From the sequence record OR539218.1: 64,000 nucleotides of DNA; one strand, written 5' to 3'. The notes under the pieces are model-generated. The model saw only the letters and a program-made list of their open reading frames with translations, did not search any database and was not told the DNA's origin. The translations under genes were made by a program, and so were the position numbers. Source of the DNA: Escherichia phage vB-Eco-KMB26. Shown here one piece after another: positions 37,043 through 38,135 of this stretch. Numbering within the stretch: position 1 is the first letter of the stretch; every line of letters starts with the position of its first letter.

Positions 37043-37134
37043 ACGAAACGCCGGGATTCGAACCCGGTTATTAAGCAGTTGACGCTACTCAATATTTTTA
37101 AAAGGCCATATCTCGACCATATCCGAACGTTCCG
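37043..37134 (-). ncRNA. tRNA-like stable RNA candidate (acceptor-like stem plus canonical T-arm; no standard cloverleaf found)
   Basis: T-arm CCGGG-TTCGAAT-CCCGG and 7-bp terminal pairing; could not fold a standard D/anticodon arm by hand. Confidence 0.3.
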
Positions 37135-37307
37135 TCAAAAACGCTACTCGGCTTACGGCAAAGATATTTCCTCGAATCGATAATTCGGTGCGCCGTTTCT
37201 GCTGTGATATAAGGGGACATTAACAAAACATAAAGATTTATTAATACCAGTCCTTAAACAGGGAACATCAGTCCGACGACTTGCCGGTAGCGACCCGGCT
37301 TCTTGTC

Positions 37308-37383
37308 TGGTCGAGGCAGTAGGGATCGAACCTACGACCCAGGACTTAGAAGGTCCTTGCTCTTCCTTCTGAGCTATGCCTCG
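37308..37383 (-). tRNA. tRNA-Arg (anticodon UCU), CCA encoded
   Basis: Hand-folded cloverleaf: 7-bp acceptor, anticodon loop cuUCUaa, T-loop TTCGATC. Confidence 0.85.
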
Positions 37384-37387
37384 TATT

Positions 37388-37462
37388 TGGCGGACGTGAT
37401 AGGATTCGAACCTATAACCAATCGCTTAACAGGCGATCGCTCTGCCATTGAGCTACACATCC
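37388..37462 (-). tRNA. tRNA-Asn (anticodon GUU), CCA encoded
   Basis: Hand-folded cloverleaf; anticodon loop cuGUUaa. Confidence 0.8.
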
Positions 37463-37466
37463 AAAT

Positions 37467-37553
37467 TGGTGGGGAGTGGTGGAGTCGAACCACCCGAGTC
37501 GCAATGACAATGAATTTACAGTCCACACCGCTACCTCTACGGGATAACTCCCC
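37467..37553 (-). tRNA. tRNA-Tyr (anticodon GUA), long variable arm, CCA encoded
   Basis: Anticodon loop cuGUAaa; 87 nt; perfect acceptor stem. Confidence 0.7.
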
Positions 37554-37562
37554 AAATTAATT

Positions 37563-37637
37563 TGGTGGCCCTGGGTGGAATTGAACCACCATCTGGCGAT
37601 TATGAGTCGCTTGCTTGAACCTTCCAGCTACAGGGCC
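37563..37637 (-). tRNA. tRNA with CAU anticodon (most likely the AUA-reading tRNA-Ile by position; Met not excluded)
   Basis: Perfect 7-bp acceptor; anticodon loop cuCAUaa; position matches T4 tRNA-Ile. Confidence 0.7.
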
Positions 37638-37638
37638 T

Positions 37639-37714
37639 TGGTGCTGATTGACGGAATCGAACCGCCGACCTTCTCATTACAAGTGAGTTGCTCTACCTAC
37701 TGAGCTAAATCAGC
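37639..37714 (-). tRNA. tRNA-Thr (anticodon UGU)
   Basis: Hand-folded; anticodon loop cuUGUaa. Confidence 0.85.
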
Positions 37715-37719
37715 AAAAC

Positions 37720-37809
37720 TGGCGGAGGCGATAGGATTTGAACCTATGAGTCGCCGGAGCGACTGCCGGTTTTCAAGACCGGTGCATTAAACCACTCTGC
37801 CACGCCTCC
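37720..37809 (-). tRNA. tRNA-Ser (anticodon UGA), long variable arm
   Basis: 90 nt; anticodon stem CCGGU/ACCGG; loop cuUGAaa. Confidence 0.85.
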
Positions 37810-37811
37810 AG

Positions 37812-37885
37812 TCTCCGTGGCAGGATTTGAACCTACGACATTCTGCTCCCAAAGCAGACGCTCTACCAAACTGAGCTACACGGAG
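37812..37885 (-). tRNA. tRNA-Pro (anticodon UGG), no encoded CCA; abuts tRNA-Ser
   Basis: Hand-folded; anticodon loop uuUGGga. Confidence 0.85.
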
Positions 37886-37895
37886 TAAATTAAAT

Positions 37896-37969
37896 TGGAG
37901 CGGATAATGAGAATCGAACTCACATCATCAGATTGGAAGTCTGAGGTAATACCATTATACGATATCCGC
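37896..37969 (-). tRNA. tRNA-Gly (anticodon UCC)
   Basis: Hand-folded; anticodon stem UCAGA/UCUGA; loop cuUCCaa. Confidence 0.85.
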
Positions 37970-37974
37970 AAATT

Positions 37975-38061
37975 TGGTGCGAGAAGTGGGACTCGAACCC
38001 ACAAGGAAATCATTCCGCAGCATTTTAAGTGCTGTGCCTTTACCAATTTGGCCATTCTCGC
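37975..38061 (-). tRNA. tRNA-Leu (anticodon UAA), long variable arm
   Basis: 87 nt; anticodon stem CAGCA/UGCUG; loop cuUAAaa. Confidence 0.85.
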
Positions 38062-38062
38062 G

Positions 38063-38135
38063 CTGGGAATAAAGGACTCGAACCTTTGCATCCTGGAATC
38101 AAAATCCAGTGCCTTACCAACTTGGCTAATTCCCA
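38063..38135 (-). tRNA. tRNA-Gln (anticodon UUG), no encoded CCA; abuts tRNA-Leu
   Basis: Hand-folded; anticodon stem CUGGA/UCCAG; loop uuUUGau. Confidence 0.85.

Follow-up and report, generated by a model that had tools for sequence, protein, structure and literature searches.

A probable segB-free Tequatrovirus tRNA operon with ten tRNA genes in Escherichia phage vB-Eco-KMB26

The tRNA region of bacteriophage T4 (NC_000866) is read in the order Gln, Leu, Gly, Pro, Ser, Thr, Ile, segB, Arg, rnaD and rnaC, segB being the gene of a GIY-YIG homing endonuclease. A middle promoter just upstream of the T4 cluster drives the whole of it and the transcript ends after the species I RNA gene (PMC2330249). 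Phages T2L, RB1, RB3 and RB6-9 are devoid of segB, and T2L carries at that location the tRNA genes Met(CAU), Tyr, Asn and Arg (Brok-Volchanskaya et al. 2008, PMC2330249); the tRNA regions of T2L, RB1 and RB3 are deposited as EMBL entries AJ880101, AJ884577 and AJ884578 (PMC2330249). The 27-bp site preferred by SegB sits inside the T2L tRNA-Asn gene, and in T4 x T2L crosses a T2L block of ~1250 bp comprising Met(CAU), Tyr, Asn and Arg is almost fully replaced by the T4 version (PMC2330249). Other layouts are those of T2 (AP018813), with Gln, Leu, Gly, Pro, Ser, an open reading frame (ORF), a tRNA with the anticodon CAU, Tyr, Asn and Arg, and of T6, with Gln, Leu, Gly, Thr, the CAU tRNA, Tyr and then segB. 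Here, we analyze the tRNA cluster of Escherichia phage vB-Eco-KMB26 (KMB26 hereafter), found in a stretch of 64,000 nucleotides (nt) of sequence record OR539218.1 that we call the window, and compare it with these systems.

The KMB26 region is very probably the Tequatrovirus tRNA operon in the segB-free form known from T2L, RB1, RB3 and hundreds of sequenced relatives. ARAGORN, applied to the whole 64-kb window, delineates ten contiguous tRNA genes, all on the minus strand, from 38135 to 37308 (Table 1), in exact agreement with the ten genes and anticodons that a first-pass annotation had read from the bare sequence. The Rfam family RF00005 (gathering score 29 bits) accepts nine of the ten at 59.9-74.1 bits with E-values of 1e-10 to 1e-14, the highest score being that of tRNA-Asn. 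The cluster is flanked by trna.2-4 upstream and e.8 downstream, is preceded by a middle-promoter motif, and continues into rnaD, rnaC and a terminator-like hairpin. Between the CAU tRNA and tRNA-Arg it holds tRNA-Tyr and tRNA-Asn, in the slot that segB occupies in T4, and no SegB homologue was found anywhere in the window by tblastn of T4 SegB (best E = 2).

The segment 36950-38250 is 100% identical to its counterparts in vB_EcoM-fFiEco06 (MG781190), Yersinia phage PYps14T, EC101 and UPWr_E2, among others, and matches in 463 phage records span 80% or more of it. The MG781190 annotation lists all ten tRNAs, with trna.4, trna.3 and trna.2 upstream and E.8 downstream; T4 shares the same flanks. 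The cluster is thus already known, having been published in 2008 (PMC2330249) and annotated in hundreds of GenBank records, and its ten-tRNA layout changes little in the existing picture. The possibility that the window is exactly MG781190 proved false beyond the cluster, where identity is 98.4-99.4% with indels; KMB26 is therefore a close relative of that phage and not necessarily the same isolate. Coordinates of MG781190 were applied only in the collinear block that holds the cluster (about 36228-50000) and not upstream of it.

Table 1. Features of the KMB26 tRNA region (window coordinates)
Feature	Coordinates	Strand	Basis and remarks
MotA-box middle-promoter-like motif TGCTTTA-N12-TATTAT	38205..38229	-	Pattern search; ~70 nt upstream of tRNA-Gln
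tRNA-Gln (UUG)	38062..38135	-	ARAGORN; Rfam 67.4 bits; 3' end ...CCCAGC, no encoded CCA; Leu directly adjoining
tRNA-Leu (UAA), class II	37975..38061	-	ARAGORN; Rfam 64 bits; CCA encoded; 86/87 to T4
tRNA-Gly (UCC)	37896..37969	-	ARAGORN; Rfam 65.8 bits; CCA encoded; 74/74 to T4
tRNA-Pro (UGG)	37811..37885	-	ARAGORN; Rfam 69.7 bits; no encoded CCA; 1 nt to tRNA-Ser
tRNA-Ser (UGA), class II	37720..37809	-	ARAGORN; Rfam 62.6 bits; CCA encoded; 90/90 to T2
tRNA-Thr (UGU)	37639..37714	-	ARAGORN; Rfam 72.9 bits; CCA encoded; 73/76 to T4; 1 nt to CAU tRNA
CAU-anticodon tRNA, T2-type allele	37563..37637	-	ARAGORN; Rfam 59.9 bits; CCA encoded
tRNA-Tyr (GUA), class II	37467..37553	-	ARAGORN; CCA encoded; 87/87 to T6 tRNA-Tyr
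tRNA-Asn (GUU)	37388..37462	-	ARAGORN; Rfam 74.1 bits; CCA encoded; 75/75 to T2 (AP018813)
tRNA-Arg (UCU), T2-type allele	37308..37383	-	ARAGORN; Rfam 65.8 bits; CCA encoded; 76/76 to T2, 50/80 to T4
rnaD (species 2 RNA) homologue, 120 nt	37187..37306	-	101/121 identical to annotated T4 rnaD
rnaC (species 1 RNA) homologue, 139 nt	37042..37180	-	137/139 identical to annotated T4 rnaC; after rnaD
Intrinsic-terminator-like hairpin, 10-bp stem, 7 G-C pairs, then TTTTT	36968..36991	-	After rnaC

The first-pass annotation had described Tyr and Asn as additions to the T4 set. The T4 annotation confirms its statement that T4 encodes eight tRNAs and neither of these two; the direction of the change does not follow, since 395 phage records carry Tyr next to Asn and 126 carry a T4-type segB, so that it is T4 that carries segB where most of its relatives carry Tyr and Asn. 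T4, the textbook phage, thus represents the minority form, and its set of eight results from a homing endonuclease gene standing where most relatives keep Tyr and Asn.

By its sequence identities, the KMB26 cluster is a mosaic of known alleles, in which the CAU tRNA, Asn and Arg are as in T2, Tyr is as in T6, and Gly, Leu and Thr are nearly identical to those of T4. Its tRNA-Gln matches the allele of T4, T2 and T6 at 66/74 positions, with a different anticodon arm, and its tRNA-Pro matches the T4 and T2 allele at 64/75. These Gln and Pro differences are concentrated in the anticodon stem-loop and leave the anticodons unchanged, the Gln loop reading UUUUGAU vs CUUUGAC in T4. Given its full identity to T2 tRNA-Asn, the KMB26 tRNA-Asn gene would hold the preferred homing site of SegB.

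By homology with T4, the operon would be read as a single transcript of ~1.2 kb, starting from a MotA-type middle promoter near 38200, running through the ten tRNAs, rnaD and rnaC, and ending at the hairpin 36991-36968. The MotA-box motif at 38229-38205 is identical in T4, T2 and T6, and together with the strong hairpin after rnaC it agrees with the transcript described for T4 (PMC2330249). In the whole window, the pattern TGCTTNA-N11-13-TANNNT has 20 matches vs 5.2 expected by chance, 16 of them on the minus strand (for example 1343-1368, 5932-5955 and 41240-41265), a pattern that fits an early/middle gene region of the T4 type. A second TTGCTTAA motif at about 38160 was considered as a promoter and dropped for lack of conservation in T4, T2 or T6.

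Host enzymes would then cut this transcript, RNase P making the 5' ends, following the scheme of RNase P cleavage, 3' trimming and CCA addition of classical T4 work. The tRNAs for Gln and Pro would be released from dimeric Gln-Leu and Pro-Ser precursors and finished by 3' trimming and the CCA-adding enzyme. Both underlying observations of the first-pass annotation hold: Gln/Leu and Pro/Ser abut, with spacers of 0 and 1 nt, and Gln and Pro lack an encoded CCA. Because the other eight encode it, only Gln and Pro would rely on the host CCA-adding enzyme, and KMB26 would depend on this enzyme less than T4 does. Thr and the CAU tRNA, separated by 1 nt, form a third abutting pair that the earlier list did not include.

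Downstream of tRNA-Arg, the first-pass annotation had noticed an element at 37043-37134 with a T-arm and an acceptor-like pairing, and had guessed a stable RNA of the species 1 or 2 type. The guess was right, since the element is part of rnaC, of which it covers only the 3' 92 of 139 nt, and its T-arm is perfect. The pairing of 37134-37128 with the 3' end did not survive comparison: it is backed by no compensatory change, and four of six relatives cannot form one of its pairs. This internal CGGAACG/CGUUUCG pairing was rejected in favor of a covarying stem between the 5' and 3' ends of the full RNA.

The complete rnaC has a minimum free energy of -50.2 kcal/mol (z = -4.55) and folds as a four-way junction made of an acceptor-like stem between the two ends of the RNA, a long (~70 nt) arm in the D-arm position, a 10-bp hairpin in the anticodon-arm position whose 6-nt loop, CGUCAA, is conserved, and a 5-bp T-arm with the loop UUCGAAU. 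Homologues were gathered from other Tevenvirinae, namely Kanagawavirus, Winklervirus, Tegunavirus, two Klebsiella phages and one Erwinia phage, the compared loci including L016 (about 326-473) and L008 (1501-1640). Across six phages, 96% of the cells of this fold are paired and 16 pairs have changed on both sides, whereas slid controls are ~40% paired; RNAalifold, applied to nine sequences, arrived at this structure independently, and 23 of its 42 pairs are compensatory. In the stem joining the 5' and 3' ends, most relatives have G-C in place of an A-U pair, and Yersinia phage fHe-Yen9-01 has U-A and C-G in place of the two U·U mismatches. A tRNA-shaped four-way junction is supported by covariation among nine phages of the Tevenvirinae. 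The rnaD gene directly follows tRNA-Arg, as in T4; it is less conserved than rnaC and its fold is unremarkable (z -1.58). No Rfam family was found for rnaC or rnaD at the gathering threshold or at E <= 10, a setting at which a chance-level match to tRNA-Sec (16.6 bits) appears over 37043-37135.

The function of rnaC and rnaD is described as unknown (PMC3014915, PMC9697503; for rnaC also PMC12685909). Most rnaC homologues are unannotated in their records. They lie between tRNA genes inside the arrays of Serratia phage LC53 and Erwinia phage COW86c and directly after a tRNA gene in several other phages, while that of fHe-Yen9-01 has no tRNA gene annotated within 1.5 kb. The homologues of IME523 and LC53 bear a non-canonical T-loop (UGCAUGC or UGCAUCC) on a covarying stem. 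Two short ORFs with a TTG start, 36931-37092 and 37098-37226 on the minus strand (53 and 42 amino acids), overlap rnaC and rnaD and are called 'hypothetical protein' in many GenBank records, such as FE6_135 and FE6_136 of MG781190, in which rnaC and rnaD as such usually go without annotation. Because of the RNA covariation, these coding-sequence calls are probably spurious. A well-supported tRNA-like fold is thus without an Rfam family, and many records mislabel it as protein-coding or omit it.

The CAU tRNA is labeled as elongator tRNA-Met by ARAGORN, tRNAscan-SE and GenBank, an assignment that we judge unlikely. It is identical to the T2 allele and matches T4 tRNA-Ile at 47/77 positions. In 5,424 of 5,426 complete Escherichia coli genomes, the genes that match it best over the full length are annotated as tRNA-Ile, at ~80% (76-82%) identity; these can only be the CAU-bearing tRNA-Ile2 genes of the ileX type. 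Because all these best matches carry the tRNA-Ile label, the phage gene most likely encodes a tRNA-Ile2, predicted to be modified with lysidine and to read AUA, a codon found 13.2 times per 1000 in the window ORFs. Its acceptor stem, as drawn by ARAGORN, starts with GGCCC and provides the pairs C4-G69 and C5-G68, presumably determinants for TilS.

The role of the Tyr and Asn genes has to be considered in the light of host defenses that cleave tRNAs. In T6-infected cells, Septu (PtuAB) cuts tRNA-Tyr in its variable arm (Chihara et al., PMC13096335). The tRNA-Tyr of T6 is seen on Northern blots and, overexpressed or amplified, rescues T6 from Septu; T6 deprived of its tRNA-rich region is more sensitive, T4, which has no tRNA-Tyr, cannot escape, and T2 is resistant (PMC13096335). 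The suggestion of the first-pass annotation that extra tRNAs resist host anticodon nucleases therefore has a published basis in the T6 tRNA-Tyr, to which the KMB26 gene is linked by sequence identity, with the qualification that protection comes by dosage and not by uncleavability, since the phage tRNA is itself cleaved. Any functional tRNA-Tyr, if strongly expressed, also neutralizes retron-Eco7 (Azam et al., PMC11555353).

For Asn and Thr, the sequences offer a hint of another kind. The KMB26 tRNA-Asn reads UAAGC/G vs UAAUC/C in E. coli asnT (the slash standing for the 40/41 site of PARIS AriB), with G39 replacing U39 beside that site, and its tRNA-Thr reads UAAUG/A vs UAAUC/A in E. coli thrU, with G40 and a compensatory 30-40 pair, C-G vs G-C. 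The substitution U39A in tRNA-Lys abolishes cleavage by AriB (PMC12409363). Because the sequence of the cut site alone does not decide cleavage (PMC12409363), these changes are suggestive only of an escape of Asn and Thr from AriB, though the fact that these T-even tRNAs differ from those of the host exactly beside the cut site is of specialist interest. Tyr and Asn would most likely top up the tRNA-Tyr and tRNA-Asn of the cell during infection, which would matter on two counts that do not exclude each other: for defense, as described, and because the phage uses the corresponding codons about 1.5 times as often as its host, set against general values for E. coli.

Several other readings of the Tyr and Asn genes have to be weighed. 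That tRNA-Tyr might be a pseudogene or a non-translational tRNA-like RNA is suggested by the Rfam search, in which 37467-37553 gives no RF00005 match at the gathering score and finds its best clan match in tRNA-Sec, at 30.9 bits vs 47. Of the Tyr and Asn cloverleaves drawn in the first-pass annotation, Asn passes ARAGORN and RF00005 and Tyr passes ARAGORN, with the same anticodon, but not RF00005. tRNAscan-SE gives tRNA-Tyr 51.2 in MG781190, a record of identical sequence, and the ARAGORN drawing is a full class-II cloverleaf with a 7-bp acceptor stem, a perfect T-arm, the anticodon loop CUGUAAA with its GUA, a 3-bp variable stem and an encoded ACCA. The D-stem contains one C·C mismatch and one G·U pair; it is these, and not gene decay, that account for the low Rfam score. 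The gene is 96-98% identical in rV5-like Vequintavirus phages (compared loci L013, 601-687, and L012, 601-688) and has the same variable-arm and T-arm sequences as the copy of a T5-like Tequintavirus phage; the T4-like, rV5-like and T5-like copies differ in anticodon stem and D-stem by compensatory changes and keep the C·C mismatch. For these reasons tRNA-Tyr looks like a functional phage tRNA exchanged horizontally among unrelated phage families. The identical T6 tRNA is moreover expressed and rescues infection (PMC13096335), and rescue by the related tRNA-Tyr of SP15 needs the Tyr anticodon (PMC11555353). A related copy in Enterobacter phage IME523 (L007, 662-746) is annotated tRNA-Pseudo-GTA and is not called by ARAGORN, which speaks for the pseudogene; some lineages may indeed contain decayed copies. 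On its cloverleaf, its compensatory changes and the T6 results, we reject this status for KMB26 as highly improbable. Codon compensation alone, by which Tyr and Asn would only raise translation capacity for a genome rich in UAU and AAU without any action against nucleases, is a better candidate, yet still a rather unlikely one. In the 89 window ORFs (35% G+C), Tyr makes up 4.6% of codons (UAU 35.5 and UAC 10.6 per 1000) and Asn 6.0% (AAU 45.0 and AAC 14.6 per 1000), both above the ~2.8% and ~3.9% of E. coli. The remaining eight tRNAs, which form the classical T4 set, suit such a genome by codon usage, reading A-ending or rare codons that it uses heavily (UUA 29.4, GGA 22.7, AGA 11.1, AUA 13.2 and CAA 24.4 per 1000). 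Tyr and Asn, however, carry G34 and read both codons of their pair without bringing new decoding capacity, E. coli has several tyr and asn tRNA genes, and T4 manages without either. The demonstrated anti-Septu effect of the identical T6 tRNA-Tyr also counts against codon demand as the sole explanation (PMC13096335), as does the fact that unrelated phages of the T5-like and rV5-like groups have the same variable and T arms, suggesting that it is the tRNA, and not the codon usage of one genome, on which selection acts.

The choice between Tyr+Asn and segB could also be decided mainly by SegB homing, Tyr and Asn then being the ancestral, uninvaded allele with little selected function. The near-complete overwriting of the T2L block in T4 x T2L crosses speaks in its favor (PMC2330249), and so do the mosaic of alleles and the identity of the CAU, Asn and Arg genes to T2 and not to T4 (CAU 47/77, Arg 50/80). 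Homing nevertheless accounts for the distribution of the genes and not for the role of the tRNAs, so that it is compatible with a functional operon, and the Tyr-Asn form outnumbers the T4-type segB three to one. The cloverleaves are intact and show compensatory changes; the tRNAs are therefore under purifying selection, and we consider homing unlikely as the main explanation. The cluster might also be a multi-target kit against nucleases and not a codon aid, with Tyr directed at Septu and retron-Eco7, Asn and Thr resistant to AriB, and rnaC serving as a decoy or competitor for tRNA-directed host enzymes. The tRNA-shaped rnaC is conserved across several Tevenvirinae genera and sits inside tRNA arrays, and it is not known to have been given a function in 50 years. 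We regard this scenario as rather improbable.

The reading of the region as a segB-free operon whose Tyr and Asn genes replenish, and in some hosts protect, the cellular pool has points against it as well. The gene content, the sequence identities and the fold of rnaC are shown by the comparisons made; transcription and processing, carried over from T4, and a protective role in KMB26 itself are inferences, and the promoter is a motif match. The T6 tRNA-Tyr is itself cut by Septu and a single copy protects only partially (PMC13096335). Asn is only a secondary target of AriB, and the tRNA-Asn of SP15 failed to rescue phages from PrrC170; a protective role of the T-even tRNA-Asn would be hypothetical, the evidence being indirect. 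The 1.5-fold excess of Tyr and Asn codons sets counts from the window against general values for E. coli. Finally, the tRNA region of T4 and T2L is non-essential for phage development, so that any benefit it confers depends on the host (PMC2330249).

Among the neighbors of the operon, the flanking ORFs match only families of unknown function in Pfam and PHROGs. A 157-amino-acid ORF at 36444-36917 (minus strand), located after the operon terminator and before e.8, has no T4 counterpart at that place and matches PHROG 2280 only, with no Pfam match.

Compared with the described systems, the KMB26 operon is closest to those of T2L, RB1, RB3, MG781190 and ~400 Tequatrovirus records, with the same genes in the same order, no segB, and rnaD and rnaC downstream. 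In T2 (AP018813), an ORF replaces tRNA-Thr and leaves nine tRNAs where KMB26 has ten, and the Gln and Pro alleles of KMB26 differ from those of T2, T4 and T6. With T4, the operon shares its position between trna.2 and e.8, the promoter motif, the first six tRNAs, the abutting pairs and rnaC (137/139); T4 differs in having segB for Tyr and Asn, other alleles of the CAU tRNA and of tRNA-Arg, and no encoded CCA in tRNA-Ser and tRNA-Ile (T4 locus L001, 4119-4205 and 3961-4034), both the tRNA-Ser and the CAU tRNA of KMB26 encoding it. T6 differs by its segB beside Tyr and by the lack of Asn, Pro and Ser at that place, and it overcomes Septu through tandem amplification driven by SegB (Chihara et al. 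2026, PMC13096335), a route that would be unavailable in cis to KMB26 because the window contains no segB. The anti-defense tRNAs of the T5 type neutralize retron-Eco7 (tRNA-Tyr) and PARIS AriB (tRNA-Lys, Thr and Asn) (PMC11555353, PMC12409363); the KMB26 cluster has no tRNA-Lys, the main AriB target, while its tRNA-Tyr and that of a T5-like phage have an identical variable arm and T-arm.

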